This document shows positions 112-8,144 of a stretch of 64,000 nucleotides of DNA, one piece after another. The notes beneath the pieces were generated by a model, which made no database searches, was not told where the DNA came from, and saw only the letters and a list, made by a program, of their open reading frames with translations. Numbering within the stretch: position 1 is the first letter of the stretch; each line of letters begins with the position of its first letter. This DNA comes from a virus. Lineage: Duplodnaviria; Caudoviricetes. Made by a program: the position numbers and the translations under genes. The stretch covers positions 1-64,000 of IMG/VR virus record IMGVR_UViG_3300037601_000088. One strand, written 5' to 3'.

Positions 112-633
112 GTGAATATTTTTTGTACGGATGAATGTCCTATTCAATCAGCATATGATCTTGATGACAAACGAGTTATTAAGATGATTGTAGAAACAGG
201 ACAATTACTTTCTACTTCTGTTTCTTTCTTTATATCAAATGAATTATATGAAGAAAAAAAAGATCTTCTTTATAAATCATGTTTTATAAATCATCCGTGC
301 AATATTTGGGCCAGAGAAAGTTATTCTAATTTTCTCTGGCTTTATATTCATGGTTTAACTTTACTTCAGATTTACGAAAAAACGTATAATAAAAAACATA
401 AATCTGGAAAACTTTATGAAGCTATAAGCTCTCTTATAGAAAAAAATCAAAAAATTACAGAATATCCTATTTCTTTTTGTGATTGTACGGAGTATAAAGA
501 TAGGATTGACCTTTCTGTCCATGAAAGGTATCGAAAATTTATGATACTTAAATGGAGTGAAAGAGATAAAACGCCTCCTACATGGAAAAAGCGAAATAAG
601 CCTTTGTGGTACAAGGAGATGAATTATGATTGA
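112..633 (+). CDS. Pyrimidine-dimer DNA glycosylase / DenV-like protein
   Basis: MNIF..D.CP..SA..L.DK.V.KM..E..QLLST, NHPC..W.R.S..N..WL motifs of the Pyr_excise-like family; AAGGA SD. Confidence 0.75.
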   Translation: MNIFCTDECPIQSAYDLDDKRVIKMIVETGQLLSTSVSFFISNELYEEKKDLLYKSCFINHPCNIWARESYSNFLWLYIHGLTLLQIYEKTYNKKHKSGKLYEAISSLIEKNQKITEYPISFCDCTEYKDRIDLSVHERYRKFMILKWSERDKTPPTWKKRNKPLWYKEMNYD

Positions 634-825: not shown

Positions 826-1188
826 TTGTTAGATAAAATACAAGAAATGCATACTAAATTTCAGATAACTAATTCTGAAATTCCATTTACACAAGAAGAA
901 AAAGATTTCAGAATTCGAGCTATGCAAGAAGAGCTCGATGAATATGAAGAAGCATCAACTCTGGAGGATGAGCTTGATGCTCTTGTTGATCTTTGCGTAT
1001 TTGCCTTTGGCACAGCAGAGAGAATGAATTTACTTGGTGTTTTTGAAGAAGCTTATAATAGAGTTATGCAAGCAAATCTTCAAAAAGAGCTTGGTACTAA
1101 TGAAAAACGTGGATCATTTGAAATCGATTTGGTTAAGCCAGATGGTTGGCAATCACCTATTTTAACAGATTTAGTCGAAGGAATTTAA
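826..1188 (+). CDS. MazG-like/PRA-PH nucleoside triphosphate pyrophosphohydrolase
   Basis: EELDEY..A......DALVDL..FA.G and V..AN..K motifs, KP.GW..P tail. Confidence 0.8.
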   Translation: MLDKIQEMHTKFQITNSEIPFTQEEKDFRIRAMQEELDEYEEASTLEDELDALVDLCVFAFGTAERMNLLGVFEEAYNRVMQANLQKELGTNEKRGSFEIDLVKPDGWQSPILTDLVEGI

Positions 1189-1539
1189 ATGTCAAGCGTA
1201 GATAAAACATTAGAAGTGCGCGGTTCTAGATATGGAACATTTGAGAATAATGCCACAACAACACAATCTTTAATGGAAGTAATTGAAAAAGCTCCAAGTT
1301 TTGAGCAATTATCAAAACTTCATAAAGAAGCAATTCATATGATTTTTCATAAGATTGCAAGAATTGTTTGCGGAGATCCTAATTATATAGATAATGTTCA
1401 TGATATCGTAGGTTATGCAAAACTCTTAGAAGATTATCTGGTTAGCAATGAAAATAAAAATTCAGTTAAACCAGACCCTTCATCATACACTGATATAGTT
1501 TCTGGAAAAGGTACTTCAAAAACTTTATTAAAAGGATAA
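1189..1539 (+). CDS. DUF6378-like nucleotide-modification-associated protein
   Basis: L..RG.RYG.F, HKIARI..GD..Y.D...DI.GYA.L motif typical of small proteins in phage base-modification loci. Confidence 0.65.
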   Translation: MSSVDKTLEVRGSRYGTFENNATTTQSLMEVIEKAPSFEQLSKLHKEAIHMIFHKIARIVCGDPNYIDNVHDIVGYAKLLEDYLVSNENKNSVKPDPSSYTDIVSGKGTSKTLLKG

Positions 1540-1542
1540 ACA

Positions 1543-2253
1543 ATGTTTAGTGTTAATGATATTAGAAACAAATTTATTCAAAAATATTTAGAAAAAGATT
1601 TTGCCGAGAACGACACATTAGAACTACTTAATGTGTCGTTTTTAGCAGATGAAGATTCTATTTTCGGTTCTGTTAATAAAGATTATATAGATAGAGAATT
1701 AGCATGGTATATTTCTATGTCTAGAAATGTTAATGATATACCTGGAAATGTTCCTAAGATATGGCAAGATGTTTCAGACAGAAATGGTAAAATCAATTCA
1801 AATTATGGTTGGTGTATTTGGTCTGAAGAAAATGGAAGTCAGTATGATTTTTGTTTATCCTCTTTACTTAATGATAAATCAACACGTCAAGCTTGCATGA
1901 TTTATAACCGGCCTGAAATGCAAATCGATGCTTTTGATAATGGCATGAGAGATTTTATGTGTACCTATGCTGTACAGTGTTTTATAAGAAATGATAGGTT
2001 ATATTATCATGTATTAATGAGATCTAACGATTGTTGGGCAGGATATCGAAACGATTTAGCATGGCATAAACATGTTTATAATAATCTATTCGTTGATCTA
2101 AAAGAAAAATATGCAGAATTAAAAAGACAAGATATTTATTGGAATGCTATGTCGCTACATGTTTATCCTAGACAATATTGGATGGTAGATTGCTGGGCTA
2201 GATTTGGTAAATATATTCCTAAAAAAGAATACGATAAATTAATAGACAAATGA
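1543..2253 (+). CDS. gp42: dCMP hydroxymethylase (thymidylate synthase superfamily, T4 gp42-like)
   Basis: INSNYGW, STRQA.MIY.RP, DFMCT, MRSND...GYRND, SLHVY; Asp (RND) at the position where dUMP-specific TS has Asn, as in T4 gp42. Confidence 0.8.
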   Translation: MFSVNDIRNKFIQKYLEKDFAENDTLELLNVSFLADEDSIFGSVNKDYIDRELAWYISMSRNVNDIPGNVPKIWQDVSDRNGKINSNYGWCIWSEENGSQYDFCLSSLLNDKSTRQACMIYNRPEMQIDAFDNGMRDFMCTYAVQCFIRNDRLYYHVLMRSNDCWAGYRNDLAWHKHVYNNLFVDLKEKYAELKRQDIYWNAMSLHVYPRQYWMVDCWARFGKYIPKKEYDKLIDK

Positions 2254-2298: not shown

Positions 2299-2934
2299 AT
2301 GGGATATGTTTATTTGATAAAAAATAAAATAAATGGAAACTGGTATATCGGATCCCATGATGGTTCTAAAGATAATTATATGGGATCCGGTATAGTATTA
2401 AATAAAGCATATGAAAAACACGGAATTGAAAATTTTACTAAAGAGATACTTTATGAAGGTGAATTTTATAGAGAAGAGGAAGAACTTTTATTAAAAACGT
2501 ATGATGCTGCAAATGACTCTAAATCTTATAACTTAAAAAATGAATCTATGGGAGGTTCCTTTCCTGGCGAATTAAATGGAATGTATAAAAAAATACATTC
2601 TAAAGAAGCACGATATAAATGTGGTAATGCATTTAGGGGTAAAAAAAGACAGGATCATTCTGAAAAAATGAAAGGTGAAAACAATCCGATGTATGGTAAA
2701 AGTTATCATACATACGGTATTGTTAAAAAAGCTAAAGAAAATAAAGGAAAAACTTTTGAAGAAATCCATGGAGAAGAAAAAGGAAAAAACTTAAAGAAAA
2801 AACTTTCTTTATCACAAAAAGGCAAAAAACACAATCTTAAAGGGGTACAATGCCCACATTGTAGTTTAGAAGGTTCTGGGCCTAATATGACTAGATACCA
2901 TTTTGATAAATGCAAAAAAAAGGATAAAAAATAG
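2299..2934 (+). mobile_element. Free-standing GIY-YIG homing endonuclease with NUMOD3-like repeats
   Basis: GYVYLIKNKINGNWYIG, YMGSG, YNL, GE.NPMYGK repeats, C-terminal CPHC...RYHFDKCK. Confidence 0.85.
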
Positions 2935-2937
2935 ATT

Positions 2938-3309
2938 ATGACTTACACGATTGAACAACAGCGTGAGAATCGCAAAAAATGGGTAGAAGCTCTTCGATCC
3001 GGTAAATATAAACAAGGTTTTTATGATTTGAGAGATGTTTATGACAATTTTTGTTGTCTGGGCATTCTTTGTGAAATTGCTGGTGAGGAAAAATATTTAG
3101 ATGAAGATAATAATTTTTGGATTTACGGCCCAAAGGAAGAAAATAATACGGCGGGTGCAACAGATTTTGCAAAAGATTTTGTTGGTTTGATTGATGGTTT
3201 AGGACATTTTGAAAGTGGTGTTTTGTCTTCAATGAATGATAATGGAGTTCCCTTTGATCAAATTGCTGATGTAATTGAATCAGAACCCGAGGGCCTTTTT
3301 CATGATTAA
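2938..3309 (+). CDS. Conserved phage hypothetical protein
   Basis: KWVEALRSGKYKQG, FCCLGILCE, ND.G.PF.QIAD.IE motifs recur in phage proteins of unknown function. Confidence 0.7.
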   Translation: MTYTIEQQRENRKKWVEALRSGKYKQGFYDLRDVYDNFCCLGILCEIAGEEKYLDEDNNFWIYGPKEENNTAGATDFAKDFVGLIDGLGHFESGVLSSMNDNGVPFDQIADVIESEPEGLFHD

Positions 3310-4291
3310 GCGAGTCGTATTAAATCCATTCACCCCAATTCCTAAATCAGAAAAATCTCATGTTCGCGGTTGGTCTATGATATGGGCTCAGCGCCTAAAT
3401 GCTGATATTGCAACTAAAGACACTGATTTGTCTGGCTATGATGAAATTTATATTGATCATGGTGTTAATTTTAATGGGGCATTAAATTTATTTGGTGGAT
3501 TTAATGACGAAGTTATTGATAGATGCAATATTTTGATTGAAAGGATTCTGAACGGAGCTAAACTTTATTCTTTAGACTGGAAAATGTCTGATATTGATTA
3601 TCCGACACAAATTTCAAAAAGAATCGGAAAAAAGAGCTCGTCAGATAGGCTTACAAGCGGTTTCTTAGATGTTATGACTGATACCTTAGGGAAGGCTAAA
3701 TTTCATTCTATGGCTAACCTGAACCTATCCAGTGCAATTTTAGGTGATTCACACTCTCCTGCATATAGTTTACCTAATATGGAAGTTTATAGAACTAATG
3801 GTAAGCTGCTTTATAGTTTTTTGAATGGTAAAACAAATTTATTATCTGGTAATATTGAATTTAAGAAAGACAAGCCTAAATGGGAAGAAATTTATATTTG
3901 TCTTGGTTCAATTGATATTCGCTTCCATGTTTATAGACATAAAACGGATCCCTTAGATTTAGCAGACAAATATCTTCAAAAAATAGATATGATTAAAAAG
4001 TTATTGGGGGTAGCAGATATTATTCCATGTGCTCCTGTTCCAATTGAATGGGAAGGTAGAAAAATTCCTGGAACTGGAATGTATAAAGGTAAACCGTTTT
4101 ATGGATCATTAGAGTTTCGCCAGGGTTTCACAAATGATTTTATTTCTTATTTAGAACGCTACATTGATGTGTTGTCTCCCCCCGAAGAATGGTATAATAT
4201 GGGCAATGAAAAATATGCAAAAGAAATTATGGAAATGGGATCTTCTGTTCATATAGCACCAAAAAATTATAATTCAATTATTGGATGGTAA
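3302..4291 (+). CDS. Putative DNA-modification enzyme: beta-glucosyltransferase-like N-domain plus SGNH-like C-domain
   Basis: Likely start ATG 3302 (overlaps upstream stop). N-domain DLSGYDEIYI...LNLFGG...KLYSLD recalls T4 BGT; C-domain GDSH...G.IDIR.H...SSVH is SGNH-like. Confidence 0.5.
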   Translation: MIKRVVLNPFTPIPKSEKSHVRGWSMIWAQRLNADIATKDTDLSGYDEIYIDHGVNFNGALNLFGGFNDEVIDRCNILIERILNGAKLYSLDWKMSDIDYPTQISKRIGKKSSSDRLTSGFLDVMTDTLGKAKFHSMANLNLSSAILGDSHSPAYSLPNMEVYRTNGKLLYSFLNGKTNLLSGNIEFKKDKPKWEEIYICLGSIDIRFHVYRHKTDPLDLADKYLQKIDMIKKLLGVADIIPCAPVPIEWEGRKIPGTGMYKGKPFYGSLEFRQGFTNDFISYLERYIDVLSPPEEWYNMGNEKYAKEIMEMGSSVHIAPKNYNSIIGW

Positions 4292-4454: not shown

Positions 4455-5408
4455 ATGTTTGAAATCACAGAATCAACAAAAAATAAAGATGTTCCTGATA
4501 AAATTTCTTTTACTGAAAGAACAAATTATCTCCGGGCTTATTATCGAAATTTTAAATCGAAGTTGCCAGATCCTTTAGTATATCCTTCAAAGGAAAGAAG
4601 CGATATTTTTATTCTTGATTTTGCTCAAGGTCCTGCTGGTTTAAAAGCTTATGCCGCCGAAAAATTTATTGCAGAACAATATAAAACTATGGGATATGCT
4701 GCAGTTCGTGTTGGCCATGCGCCTGAAGCAATTGCTTTTCTTTGTGAAATGTATAATAAAAATGTTGTTTTCTTTGGAGCTGCCTCGAAACAAATCACAC
4801 CTCACCAGGCTGTCGTTTTAGCTTATAAAAATACAAATCTTCGATTTGCTAAAATTCCAGCAATGCCTACGATGAATACATGGATAAAAAATTGGGCTCA
4901 GAAATATGATGCTGTTCCTCTACCTATGGGTTTGGCTAATACTTGGCAAGTAACAGCTGGGATTGTTAATATTGCTGAAACATATACACAAAAATATGGT
5001 GAGCCCACTCAATTTTATTGTGCTGTGTCTACCGGAACAATGATCAGAGGTCTTCAATTAGGTTGGCCTAATGCTGAAGCACGCGGTGTTGCAGTTGCCC
5101 GCAATATTAAAGATGGTGAAAAAGGATCAGCTGAAGTTATTTCCTATCACAAAAAATTCTATGCTGAATCTGATTATATGCCAAATTTCAATACAACATC
5201 AACATATGATGCTAAGGCCTATAAACATTTTATTGATACAGCAAAACCTGGAGCTGTTTTTATTAATGTCGGTTCAGATGCTCAAATTGAAAAAAGGTTA
5301 AATAAAATTCCCGGTTGGGAAAATATTAATGCTAAAAGAGAATGGGGTGATAAATCTGCATTTGACATTGGATATGTCCCTAATAACGAAGAGGTACTTT
5401 TCTTTTAA
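4455..5408 (+). CDS. PLP-dependent enzyme (fold type II, ACC deaminase / Trp synthase beta-like)
   Basis: AGLKAY candidate PLP-Lys, AVSTGTMIRGL glycine-rich phosphate loop, TYDAKAY, FINVG. Confidence 0.7.
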   Translation: MFEITESTKNKDVPDKISFTERTNYLRAYYRNFKSKLPDPLVYPSKERSDIFILDFAQGPAGLKAYAAEKFIAEQYKTMGYAAVRVGHAPEAIAFLCEMYNKNVVFFGAASKQITPHQAVVLAYKNTNLRFAKIPAMPTMNTWIKNWAQKYDAVPLPMGLANTWQVTAGIVNIAETYTQKYGEPTQFYCAVSTGTMIRGLQLGWPNAEARGVAVARNIKDGEKGSAEVISYHKKFYAESDYMPNFNTTSTYDAKAYKHFIDTAKPGAVFINVGSDAQIEKRLNKIPGWENINAKREWGDKSAFDIGYVPNNEEVLFF

Positions 5409-5965
5409 TGCATGAAGGAATAAAATTCAATACTAGTACAAGACAAAAAAATGATTATTATGCTACTCACCCGAGTGCTTTTGATATTTTAATTAAGAAT
5501 CATCTTTTGAGCGATAATATATGGGAACCGGCATGTGGTGGTAAATTTCTTTCAAACAGAATGAAAGAGTATGGTTATAATGTTAGAGAAAGTGATATTA
5601 TAGATTATGGAGGGAACGAAGTATTAGATTTTCTTTCCTCTAACGAAACATTTAAAGGAGACATAGTAACAAATCCTCCTTATAAACATGCTTTAGAATT
5701 TGTTCAAAAATCATTGGATACTGTCGAGGAAGGTTATGATGTATGTATGTTTTTGAAAATTCATTTTCTCGAAAGTAAAAAAAGATACAAATTTCTTAAA
5801 GAAACTCCTCCGGCTAAAATATTAACATGTTCAAATAGAGTTATTTGTGCTAAGAATGGTGAATTTGATAAAGTATCTGGTTCTATGACTTTTTATGCAT
5901 GGTTCATATGGACAAAGGGTTTTAAATATAAAACAACATTGGAAGTGGTGAATGGTGATGATTAA
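5408..5965 (+). CDS. DNA N6-adenine methyltransferase
   Basis: DYYATH, WEPACGG motif I, DIVTNPPY motif IV, YAWFIW. Confidence 0.85.
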   Translation: MHEGIKFNTSTRQKNDYYATHPSAFDILIKNHLLSDNIWEPACGGKFLSNRMKEYGYNVRESDIIDYGGNEVLDFLSSNETFKGDIVTNPPYKHALEFVQKSLDTVEEGYDVCMFLKIHFLESKKRYKFLKETPPAKILTCSNRVICAKNGEFDKVSGSMTFYAWFIWTKGFKYKTTLEVVNGDD

Positions 5966-7094
5966 TTATACGAAATATTATGAAGAATTTCTTCGCTATC
6001 ATGAAATGGCAAAATGGCAACAGGCTAATTGCAATTTAGGAACTGTTCCATATACAGATACACCATACAATGATGATTTAATCAAAAACGTTTATCTATA
6101 TGATGTTGTTAAACGAAAGTATGCTGGTTTCACTCAAATTCTTCATGATTTATGGTTTACTGAACAAAATCATACTTACAAAGAAAAGCTTACTCCTTTC
6201 AGAAAAGAATTAACAAATTCAATCGATTCGTCTGATTGGGATTTCAAGGATTGGCTGTTTGTTTTCTTTGTCCACCGTTTGACTGGTTCTGCAATTAATT
6301 ATGCGCAAACACCATCAGGTTATTATAATTCAATTCTTCTTCATTTTCAGGGATGTAAAAATCGCTATGATATGATTGAAGTTATAAAATCATATGATGG
6401 TCCTATGTATACTTCAATAGGCTATCAAATCGCAGGCTTTCCAAAAGCGCCTGAAGGCTGGAAAAGAGCCGGTGATTATTTTATTACAACTCATTTACCA
6501 TTATTAATTCATGATTTTGCTGAGTTTGTTGAAACTCAACCCAAAGAATTTCGACCCCTTATGGAATGGTTGGAAAATTATCATAAAGAAAGAGGCTGGA
6601 GAGTATTTCGTTTTCAATATGCGGCAGTTCTTGCAGATATTGCTGACTTTTTCCCGGAAAAAATGATTATTGATTCTCATTTCTTCTATGGATCAAATGC
6701 AATTGAATGCTTATCATATATGGCAGAAAAGCCATCCGGTGTTTCAAAATTAAAACACCTCGATAATATTATGGAGCAAATATGGCTTGATACAAATTCA
6801 AGACCTTATAATGCTGAGGATATTGCGTGTGATTGCATTCGCTGGATCGAAAATTATATAAATCCTAAACAAGACTATTCACATTTAGATTTAGATGAAG
6901 TATGGTCAAGTCATAAAATTAAAGATCATCCATATGGTAGACAAAAGCCTATGTTAGAATTAGGGTTGATTAATACTTTTAATGGGATGAAAGGTCATCC
7001 CTCTGACGATAAAATTTTAAAGGAAGCAAATGTATCGGTTCAAGAATATAGAGAAAAAGTTAGAGAATTGGAAAATAGTGTTTCTTGGCTTTAA
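5952..7094 (+). CDS. Amino acid:DNA transferase-like protein (aGPT-PPlase-like, HhH-glycosylase fold), divergent
   Basis: DDLIKNVYLYDVVKRKY, GSNAIECL and AEDIACDCIRW resemble the D.IL..Y.F.NV.R, GPGA..GL and E..LCE..KY blocks of aGPT-PPlases; context in modification cluster; start may be 5958. Confidence 0.5.
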   Translation: MVMINYTKYYEEFLRYHEMAKWQQANCNLGTVPYTDTPYNDDLIKNVYLYDVVKRKYAGFTQILHDLWFTEQNHTYKEKLTPFRKELTNSIDSSDWDFKDWLFVFFVHRLTGSAINYAQTPSGYYNSILLHFQGCKNRYDMIEVIKSYDGPMYTSIGYQIAGFPKAPEGWKRAGDYFITTHLPLLIHDFAEFVETQPKEFRPLMEWLENYHKERGWRVFRFQYAAVLADIADFFPEKMIIDSHFFYGSNAIECLSYMAEKPSGVSKLKHLDNIMEQIWLDTNSRPYNAEDIACDCIRWIENYINPKQDYSHLDLDEVWSSHKIKDHPYGRQKPMLELGLINTFNGMKGHPSDDKILKEANVSVQEYREKVRELENSVSWL

Positions 7095-7209
7095 GGGTGA
7101 ATTATTTTATTGGGGTGATTTAAGGATTAATAATGGGGATCCTTATTTTGAATATAGATTTGGTCCAGTAAGTTTTAGAAGATTTTTAAGAAAGAAAATG
7201 TTTCGATGA
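7030..7209 (+). CDS. Possible small hypothetical protein (59 aa)
   Basis: ATG 7030 with AAGGA SD, open to TGA overlapping ATG 7206; overlaps 3' end of upstream gene. Confidence 0.3.
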   Translation: MYRFKNIEKKLENWKIVFLGFKGELFYWGDLRINNGDPYFEYRFGPVSFRRFLRKKMFR

Positions 7210-7682
7210 GACTTGAGAAAGACGATTATTTCTTACATATTGCAAAACTTGTTTCAATGAGAGCAACATGTGTTCGTAGGCAAGTAGGTTGCGTCATTGT
7301 TGATGAACATAATCATATATTAGCCACAGGTTATAACGGTGTACCAATGAACTATAGGCATTGCACAGACGTTAAATGTGCTGGTGCTGATATGCCATCA
7401 GGAACCGGTTTAAATGCTTGTATGGCCACCCATGCGGAACAGAATGCTCTTTTACAATGTAAAAACATATTTGAAATCAATACAATTTATTGTACAACTT
7501 CTCCATGCCCAACATGTGCTAAATTAATAGCAAATACTTCATGCAAGAGAGTGGTTTATTCTGAAATGTATAGTGATACATCAAACCTAAAATTGTTTGA
7601 TGAACTAGGCATTAAACATGAATATATTAAAACCAGTCTTAAAGTAACTTTGCTGCCAAATTTTGATTATGGGCGTTACTAA
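7206..7682 (+). CDS. cd: dCMP deaminase
   Basis: RATCVRRQVG, TGYNG, HAEQNA, PCPTCAK zinc motifs. Confidence 0.92.
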   Translation: MRLEKDDYFLHIAKLVSMRATCVRRQVGCVIVDEHNHILATGYNGVPMNYRHCTDVKCAGADMPSGTGLNACMATHAEQNALLQCKNIFEINTIYCTTSPCPTCAKLIANTSCKRVVYSEMYSDTSNLKLFDELGIKHEYIKTSLKVTLLPNFDYGRY

Positions 7683-7694
7683 AAAAGGATTAAT

Positions 7695-8144
7695 ATGAAA
7701 TTCGCATTATTTGATTTAGATGGTACTTTAAATGAAGGACCATCTCCTAAAGCTCTTTCTTTCGTTGAAAGGCACCCAAAAAACTGGAAAGCTTTTTTTG
7801 AAGAATTAGAAACAGCTAAAGTAAAAAAACACATCGAAAGAAAATATCATTCTTATGAACATAAAAAGATGATTATGACAGCTCGAGGAACTGCTTTTAA
7901 GGCAACTACGTTATATTGGCTTTATAAACATGGATTTAAAGATTTTTTTGAACTTAGAATGAGGCCCATTGACGATAAAAGGCCGTCTCCCATTTGTAAA
8001 AGAGATATGATGAAACAGGTTATTAGAGATCATGGTATGCCCGAAATTGTTTATGAGGATAGAGAAGATGTAGTAGAAGTTTTTAAAGAGTTAAAAATTC
8101 CTAAGATTATTTTAGTCCCAACAAAAAATAAGGATACAACATAA
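7695..8144 (+). CDS. HAD-family phosphatase (polynucleotide kinase 3'-phosphatase-like)
   Basis: FDLDGTL, TAR, L.MRP..D.RP....K, YEDR. Confidence 0.8.
   Translation: MKFALFDLDGTLNEGPSPKALSFVERHPKNWKAFFEELETAKVKKHIERKYHSYEHKKMIMTARGTAFKATTLYWLYKHGFKDFFELRMRPIDDKRPSPICKRDMMKQVIRDHGMPEIVYEDREDVVEVFKELKIPKIILVPTKNKDTT

Follow-up and report, generated by a model that had tools for sequence, protein, structure and literature searches.

A two-domain phage protein with a glucosyltransferase-like front and an SGNH-type back within a conserved gene set whose most likely role is to convert 5-hydroxymethylcytosine into a new, non-sugar DNA modification

The locus and its conserved gene set

We analysed a 64,000-nucleotide stretch of viral DNA (Duplodnaviria; Caudoviricetes), positions 1 to 64,000 of the IMG/VR record IMGVR_UViG_3300037601_000088 and hereafter called the window, and focused on the open reading frame (ORF) at 3302-4291 (+), which encodes a two-domain protein of 329 amino acids (aa). 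An initial annotation, made from the letters alone, had described this product as an apparent fusion of a domain like the front of T4 beta-glucosyltransferase (BGT) to an SGNH-like domain, and as a possible acyltransferase acting on 5-hydroxymethylcytosine (5-hmC) in DNA. Our comparisons indicate that the protein belongs to a conserved module of three enzymes that resembles the machinery of thymidine hypermodification, a point absent from that annotation. The principal features are listed here with the evidence for each.

1543..2253, + strand: T4 gp42-type dCMP hydroxymethylase, the source of hm-dCMP (Pfam Thymidylat_synt E 1e-10; identity to gp42)
3302..3715, + strand: N-domain of the 329-aa protein, residues 1-138, flavodoxin/GT-B-N-like (invariant S19-H20, W24 and G66; near-invariant N62 and G65)
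3716..4291, + strand: C-domain of the 329-aa protein, residues ~139-329, SGNH fold (Foldseek, VIA, Atlas, conservation)
4455..5408, + strand: fold-type II (PALP-like) pyridoxal phosphate (PLP) enzyme (phrog_7093 E 2e-35)
5952..7094, + strand: 380-aa helical partner protein, a candidate nucleophile:DNA transferase (fusions elsewhere; Atlas neighbours)

We examined the gene order in 80 IMG/VR viral loci that carry relatives of the 329-aa protein, many of them near-duplicates and therefore not independent samples, and tested them for three families (hydroxymethylase, PLP enzyme and helical protein). The succession of hydroxymethylase, 329-aa gene, PLP gene and 380-aa gene is repeated in most of them. 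The PALP-like gene directly follows the relative in 55 of the 61 loci that extend at least 2.5 kb downstream. Where 5 kb are available on both sides (n = 26), all 26 loci contain the 380-aa family, 24 have the PALP-like gene and 21 a hydroxymethylase gene, and throughout the census every partner-gene match lies on the same strand as the relative. The order of 329-aa gene, PLP gene and 380-aa gene also recurs in contigs L002, L004 and L005, and in a more distant member the PALP-like gene is found three genes downstream. In the phage record, the P-loop HMUDK domain (PF18748) has no match, and PF18723 and PF18724 are likewise absent.

Three of four orthologues of the PLP enzyme match Pfam PALP (best E 2.6e-6). 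As a separate observation, an annotated DNA modification methylase of Erythrobacter phage vB_EliS_R6L (KY006853.1, 462-1178) matches the module's PALP-like protein (25% identity, E 1e-10), which hints at a PLP-like domain either fused to a methyltransferase or mislabelled as one.

The base that the module acts upon is indicated by its hydroxymethylase, which shares 49% identity with T4 gp42 along the full length and conserves the Asp of an RND motif at the position of T4 Asp179. In gp42, Asp179 is the residue that chooses cytosine over uracil. A hydroxymethylase is present in 58 of the 80 loci, and all 58 carry Asp at the specificity position. The 5-hmC setting assumed by the initial annotation is borne out by these neighbours. 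A 5-hydroxymethyluracil (hmU) pathway, first suspected from the presence of a dCMP deaminase, was rejected because the hydroxymethylase is gp42-like and has the specificity Asp.

Start codon, family and domain layout

The longest open frame begins with a TTG at 3275. The true start is the ATG at 3302, because the N-termini of all homologues coincide with it; this ATG overlaps the stop of the upstream ORF (2938..3309). The resulting translation contains exactly each of the motifs that had been quoted for it (RLNADIA, DLSGYDEIYI, LNLFGG and KLYSLD in the front half; LGDSH, LGSIDIRFH and SSVHI in the back half). An AlphaFold2 model of the whole protein has a mean pLDDT of 89.6, and the N-domain folded alone gives a flavodoxin-like three-layer domain with a pLDDT of 92.9, so that the proposed two-domain layout is real.

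The protein belongs to phrog_13881, whose function is listed in PHROGs as unknown. It matches zero Pfam families, even at E <= 10, and single and profile searches of PDB sequences returned only chance matches to TPR and terpene synthase entries. A word-indexed search found 173 homologues of ~320-335 residues, and an exhaustive profile search with the family yielded at least 518 cluster representatives (50% identity) at E <= 1e-3. In 33 close members the invariant residues are S19-H20, H53-G-x-N56, N62-L-F-G-G66, D92, R107, G148-D-S-H151, G202-S-x-D205-x-R207-x-H209, P245-x-P247-x-E249, R253, R273, E311 and S315-x-H317. Across 16 members reaching down to 25% identity, S19, H20, W24, G66, G148-D-S-H151, G202, I204, D205, R207, H209, R253, P256, R273, E311 and H317 are still invariant. 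We also considered an internal duplication, and set it aside when the comparison of the N-domain with the C-domain proved unconvincing (hhalign score 20.2, P 0.017). The protein is a previously undescribed two-domain enzyme, with a glucosyltransferase-like front and an esterase/acyltransferase-type back.

The C-terminal SGNH domain

Residues ~140-329 match SGNH hydrolases of the PDB (Foldseek E 5.7e-4, prob 1.00), and VIA-align superposes them on dozens of GDSL esterases and O-acyltransferases with Z from 11.6 to 9 (best match: Z 11.6, root-mean-square deviation (rmsd) 3.6, 168 aligned residues). The best of these fold matches are carbohydrate esterases, and feature neighbours in the ESM Atlas are GDSL clusters (score 0.91). 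The block-I serine, block-II glycine and block-V histidine are all present, and block I (G148-D149-S150) is invariant in the 33 close and the 16 distant members. The assignment of the C-terminal half to an SGNH fold that retains its Ser and His is supported, and both S150 and H317 persist down to 25% identity.

A hypothetical protein of Tenacibaculum phage PTm5 (AP019525.1, 46230-46760) matches the SGNH half alone (residues 146-326, E 2e-7), and therefore the C-domain also exists without the N-domain.

The N-terminal domain and T4 BGT

The BGT sequence strings against which the initial annotation had compared the N-domain (GLNVD..II, VNDYDRLIV, INFFGG and KIYYLFTD) are correct according to the translation of T4 b-gt. 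An exhaustive VIA comparison of the N-domain model with 48,161 chains returned TIR domains as its best matches (Z 6.6 to 6.0) and placed T4 BGT at rank 4 (Z 5.6, rmsd 3.6, 105 aligned residues, 15% identity), with residues 2-138 of the model superposed on residues 1-138 of the BGT chain. T4 alpha-glucosyltransferase (AGT) ranked 18th (Z 5.0), and nucleoside 2'-deoxyribosyltransferases were also similar (Z 5.3-5.6). Among the viral models of BFVD, three members of the protein's own family were followed by a 351-residue UniParc entry, equal in length to T4 BGT, and then by group-1 glycosyltransferases. Outside the family, an ESM Atlas shape search with the N-domain found only flavodoxin-like or unrelated clusters (TM ~0.5).

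We compared the N-domain profile with T4 BGT alone (hhalign P 0.003) and with a BGT family alignment built from eight phages, whose invariant N-domain residues include N70, G73, G74 and D100. The family comparison gave P 5e-4 and a probability of 31% over 41 columns, and a second run gave a score of 34.0 (P 2.2e-4). None of 150 column-shuffled BGT profiles reached the real score (mean 14.2, standard deviation 2.8, maximum 26.1), and the reversed BGT profile scored 16.0. In the alignments to T4 BGT alone and to the BGT family, N62-L-F-G65-G66 falls on N70-x-[FY]-G73-G74 of BGT, and the ensuing helix and strand are aligned to their BGT counterparts as well. Across the wider family of the 329-aa protein, G66 is invariant and N62 and G65 are nearly so. 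The likeness to BGT, short as it is, appears specific and unlikely to be chance, because shuffled and reversed profiles score lower and the NLFGG loop falls on NFFGG.

The Pfam model of BGT (PF09198) has no match in the whole phage record at E <= 1. Together with the SGNH fold of the C-terminal half, this agrees with the view that an SGNH domain takes the place of the UDP-glucose-binding domain of BGT.

Fusions with helical domains

Longer fused forms of the protein were not returned by the word-index search and surfaced in the exhaustive profile search. Three of them (P0179, P0213 and P0223, with 719, 740 and 790 residues across the three) consist of the N-domain and SGNH domain followed by the 380-aa family. 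The window's 380-aa protein matches the C-terminal half of P0223 (BLASTP E 1e-44), and its family matches the C-terminal halves of P0179 and P0213 (hhalign 100%, E 1e-47 to 1e-59).

A further fusion, P0239 (981 aa), joins an FkbM methyltransferase, an HMUDK_hel domain (a match that passes the Pfam cut-off, E 4.5e-11) and the two domains of the 329-aa protein. A 795-aa protein of Aeromonas phages 44RR and 31 begins with the same two domains and continues with a domain homologous to the HMUDK_hel-holding middle of P0239 (E 1e-21); direct Pfam matches of the Aeromonas fusion proteins to HMUDK_hel are weak. The protein is thus found fused to helical domains in both orders, and one type of these domains, HMUDK_hel, is also the companion of the P-loop kinase domain in 5-HMUDK, the 5-hydroxymethyldeoxyuridine DNA kinase of thymidine hypermodification.

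The ESM Atlas neighbours of the 380-aa family carry HMUDK_hel/ADDT domains (feature scores 0.96-0.98, TM 0.60-0.64), and a PDB profile search with this family found nothing. A predicted complex of the 329-aa protein with the 380-aa protein scored 0.00, which gives no verdict either way.

In the neighbourhood of the P0239 gene, at L016:3-5682, lie a thymidylate-synthase (TS)-like gene with the specificity Asp, a gene resembling inositol-1-phosphate synthase and a small gene with a weak P-loop likeness.

Homologues in cultured Aeromonas phages

Homologues occur in 38 records of Aeromonas T4-like phages, including 44RR, 31 and 25. A 2010 review noted that these three phages possess genes 42 and 56 and lack a glucosyltransferase, and left unanswered whether gene-42 phages without glucosyltransferases modify hmC in another way (PMC2993671). 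In phages 44RR2.8t and UP87 (L001:4408-5931, L014:3259-4818), the gene next upstream of the 795-805 aa fusion encodes a sodium:solute symporter (Pfam SSF E ~1e-52). In phage 25 (L015:2779-4957), the homologue is a stand-alone protein of 348 residues, directly preceded by a UDP-galactopyranose mutase (Pfam GLF E 5e-54) and a 358-aa protein of unknown function (P0121). P0121 has a Rossmann-like N-terminus, and hhalign found no link between it and either the BGT family or the N-domain of the 329-aa protein. This neighbourhood may represent an undescribed furanose-type system of hmC glycosylation.

A candidate pathway

In thymidine hypermodification, a kinase phosphorylates 5-hydroxymethyldeoxyuridine (5-hmdU), an amino-acid:DNA transferase expels the phosphate by way of the exocyclic methylene and adds an amino acid, and a PLP enzyme decarboxylates the product (PMC8989533). 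Decarboxylases of DNA-bound amino acids were demonstrated experimentally in phages M6 and ViI, and were modelled on a fold-II template (PMC8989533). The PLP enzyme of the module is their counterpart here.

The conserved gene set described here most likely turns the 5-hmC of phage DNA into a new, non-sugar modification. On balance, we favour the 329-aa protein as the core, constant enzyme of a pathway that would modify 5-hmC in DNA after replication, in the position that the P-loop kinase occupies in thymidine hypermodification. It would occupy the kinase position because the module has transferase-like and PLP parts and an hmC hydroxymethylase, and no P-loop kinase.

O-acylation of the hydroxymethyl group would be the simplest chemistry, because acyl transfer is what an SGNH domain catalyses when its Ser-His pair is intact. 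In such a pathway, the hydroxymethylase would supply hmC, and the N-domain would hold the flipped-out base in the manner of the BGT acceptor domain. Next, the SGNH domain would transfer an acyl group, by way of an acyl-Ser150 intermediate, onto the 5-CH2OH of hmC, and the resulting ester would serve as the leaving group (a carboxylate). The helical 380-aa partner would swap this ester for an amino acid or another nucleophile, and the PLP enzyme would subsequently decarboxylate the appended amino acid. Invariant E311 might substitute for the acid that block V lacks. We put forward only tentatively the full proposal, namely that an SGNH-fold enzyme O-acylates 5-hmC in DNA, as the first DNA O-acyltransferase, with an ester replacing the phosphate, and that a cytosine hypermodification of non-sugar type, derived from an amino acid, could subsequently be made by a helical transferase together with a PLP decarboxylase. 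Aminoalkyl or aminoethoxymethyl cytosine could be examples of its products.

Weighing the proposal

Several observations weigh against this proposal, beginning with the domains of the protein itself. It is the fold alone that suggests acyl transfer to hmC. The family's block III reads G202-[S/N]-I204-D205, with Ile at the position of the oxyanion Asn; in block V, the residue at -3 of H317 is S, G, K or R and not Asp; and the Pfam Lipase_GDSL and GDSL models remain unmatched, even at E <= 10. For the N-domain, the hhalign probability of the BGT match is 31-45%, and its VIA score is level with those of TIR and flavodoxin-like folds, middling by the scale of the tool and below proof of homology. 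Foldseek against the PDB gave no match at E <= 1e-3 and left BGT outside the top 50. What endures of the claimed kinship with the BGT N-domain is a weak, repeatable signal in the profile and VIA comparisons, which Foldseek does not echo and which comparable folds equal.

In BGT, Asp100, located after strand 4, is catalytic. The initial annotation had equated it with the Asp of KLYSLD, and this equivalence fails: D92 sits two residues before BGT D100 in the hhalign alignments, and distant members of the family have H, E, Y, G or R in its place.

The partners of the protein raise further doubts. The tie between the 380-aa family and HMUDK_hel/ADDT consists of likeness in Atlas features and shape only; Pfam searches of 17 members of the family gave zero matches, and hhalign comparisons (alignments A6 and A8) found no link to HMUDK_hel-type domains. 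In phage 25, neither a PLP enzyme nor a helical partner was identified among the scanned neighbours, and the homologue lies beside a UDP-galactopyranose mutase; therefore, the enzyme can work in a different, sugar-related setting. Finally, a kinase could lie in the missing part of the phage record, because the record is only ~85% complete.

We compared the proposed activating role with four other explanations. The strongest of them, which we nevertheless regard as rather unlikely, is that the protein is a late tailoring enzyme, whose SGNH domain adds or removes an acyl group on a moiety already attached to hmC (for example, acetylating a free amine or cleaving an ester intermediate), while activation is performed by another protein or is unneeded. 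The fold fits such a role, as SGNH enzymes are typically esterases or O-acyltransferases of decorated polymers, and the cluster includes a HAD/PNKP-type phosphatase. Thymidine pathways include acetyltransferase tailoring steps (PMC8989533). However, of all members of the module this protein is the most constant, and its fusions to base-handling helical domains, which occur in both orders, parallel that of the kinase domain in 5-HMUDK. Moreover, a search of the phage record with PF18748, PF18723 and PF18724 found no other candidate activator.

It is improbable that the protein instead belongs to a sugar-type modification of hmC, where it would O-acylate or de-acylate a sugar on the base, or would itself handle a sugar or polyol donor. 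We retain this explanation mainly because of the sugar-linked neighbours in Aeromonas phages, namely the mutase and the 358-aa protein upstream in phage 25 and the symporter upstream in 44RR and UP87, to which the inositol-1-phosphate-synthase-like gene upstream in L016 may be added. The rank of carbohydrate esterases among the SGNH fold matches would suit it too, as would that of GT-B glycosyltransferases, nearest to the N-domain among viral models. The conserved partners that were found, one a PLP enzyme and the other a helical protein of transferase-like type, speak against it, as does the lack of a PF09198 match in the phage record; neither the first 9 kb of the window nor the neighbourhoods in L002, L004 and L005 contain a glycosyltransferase or sugar-nucleotide gene.

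We consider it quite improbable that the protein acts before replication on free hm-dCMP or hm-dCTP, rather than on DNA. Nucleotide-pool genes surround it (hydroxymethylase, dCMP deaminase and MazG-like), and its N-domain shares the fold similarity to nucleoside 2'-deoxyribosyltransferases given above. Yet it is fused to HMUDK_hel-type domains, and in the known pathways the proteins with HMUDK_hel act on the DNA polymer (PMC8989533); its several invariant arginines would also suit a polyanionic substrate.

Lastly, the protein could lack catalysis altogether and serve as a subunit that binds hmC-DNA or acts as a scaffold, its SGNH fold being dead as in the OSK domain of Oskar (itself among the fold matches, Z 9.4). 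This would account for the missing canonical block-III Asn and block-V Asp, but is highly improbable given a Ser-His dyad and further charged residues that are invariant at 25% identity, as is typical of an active site.

Relation to known systems

The activating role that we favour has its closest parallel in 5-HMUDK of phages M6, ViI, PhiW-14 and SP10. The 329-aa protein would have the same place in its pathway; it is accompanied by a TS-like hydroxymethylase, a fold-II PLP enzyme and a helical protein of transferase-like type, and its family is found fused to an HMUDK_hel domain (P0239). Unlike 5-HMUDK, it has no P-loop kinase domain, and a flavodoxin-like domain and an SGNH fold are present instead; the base is hmC rather than hmU, and an ester would take over from phosphate as the leaving group. 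Like T4 BGT (GT-B, PF09198), it is a phage protein in an hmC setting, whose N-domain has the same order of strands and helices and an N-x-F-G-G loop. It differs from BGT by the SGNH domain in place of the UDP-glucose-binding Rossmann domain and by the unaligned equivalent of Asp100. With SGNH/GDSL enzymes (PatB, carbohydrate esterases, TesA), it shares the fold (Z 9-11.6), the GDS Ser of block I, the Gly of block II and the His of block V. Its block III is G-[SN]-I-D and not G-x-N-D, its block V is without Asp, and it is further set apart from these enzymes by the additional invariant residues R207, H209, R253, R273 and E311, by the added N-domain and by a DNA-modification context.

A full-text literature search found no paper that ties an SGNH-fold protein to DNA hypermodification, and no amino-acid-type hypermodification of hmC. 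To our knowledge, which is not exhaustive, the hmC decorations of phage DNA are sugars, and amino-acid-type hypermodification is known to us only for thymidine, where it depends on a P-loop DNA kinase. If the proposal is true, the module brings amino-acid-type hypermodification chemistry to cytosine, and a new enzyme family of at least 518 clusters at 50% identity stands in the activating position. The modification would also be widespread, spanning marine and freshwater phages and the Aeromonas T4-like phages. For Aeromonas phages 44RR, 31 and 25, which make hm-dCMP and have no glucosyltransferase, the family is a concrete candidate to answer the question of 2010. New DNA modifications bear on the escape of phages from restriction and CRISPR, and yield tools for hmC chemistry and sequencing.

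Other genes of the cluster

The remaining genes around the module are listed in their order along the window.

826..1188, + strand: MazG/PRA-PH-like NTP pyrophosphatase (Pfam PRA-PH E 3.9e-5)
1189..1539, + strand: DUF6378-like small protein (Pfam DUF6378 E 1.7e-5, just under the cut-off)
2938..3309, + strand: 123-aa protein of unknown function (phrog_18067, function unknown, E 4.6e-22)
5408..5965, + strand: small ORF resembling DNA methyltransferases of the NPPY type (Pfam Dam E 0.02; phrog_799 E 3.8e-50)
7206..7682, + strand: dCMP deaminase (Pfam dCMP_cyt_deam_1 E 6e-22)
7695..8144, + strand: HAD phosphatase of the PNKP type, uncertain as a member of the module (Pfam HAD_PNKP E 5e-13)

The MazG/PRA-PH-like enzyme likely drains dCTP to supply dCMP, and MazG/PRA-PH genes are also close to the homologues in loci L002, L004 and L005. 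A DUF6378 gene lies immediately upstream of a distant homologue in locus L017. The NPPY methyltransferase-like ORF is an insertion between the PLP and 380-aa genes, and is missing from that position in L002, L004 and L005.

Two further ORFs were observed in the same region. The ORF at 112-633 (+) matches phrog_624 (E 5e-45) and has a weak resemblance, just short of the Pfam cut-off, to a pyrimidine dimer DNA glycosylase (Pyr_excise E 1.7e-4). Between the hydroxymethylase and the modification genes, the ORF at 2299-2934 (+) resembles a GIY-YIG/NUMOD3 homing endonuclease (Pfam NUMOD3 E 1.7e-6, GIY-YIG E 0.009); T4 has a similar arrangement, with its GIY-YIG gene segA beside b-gt.

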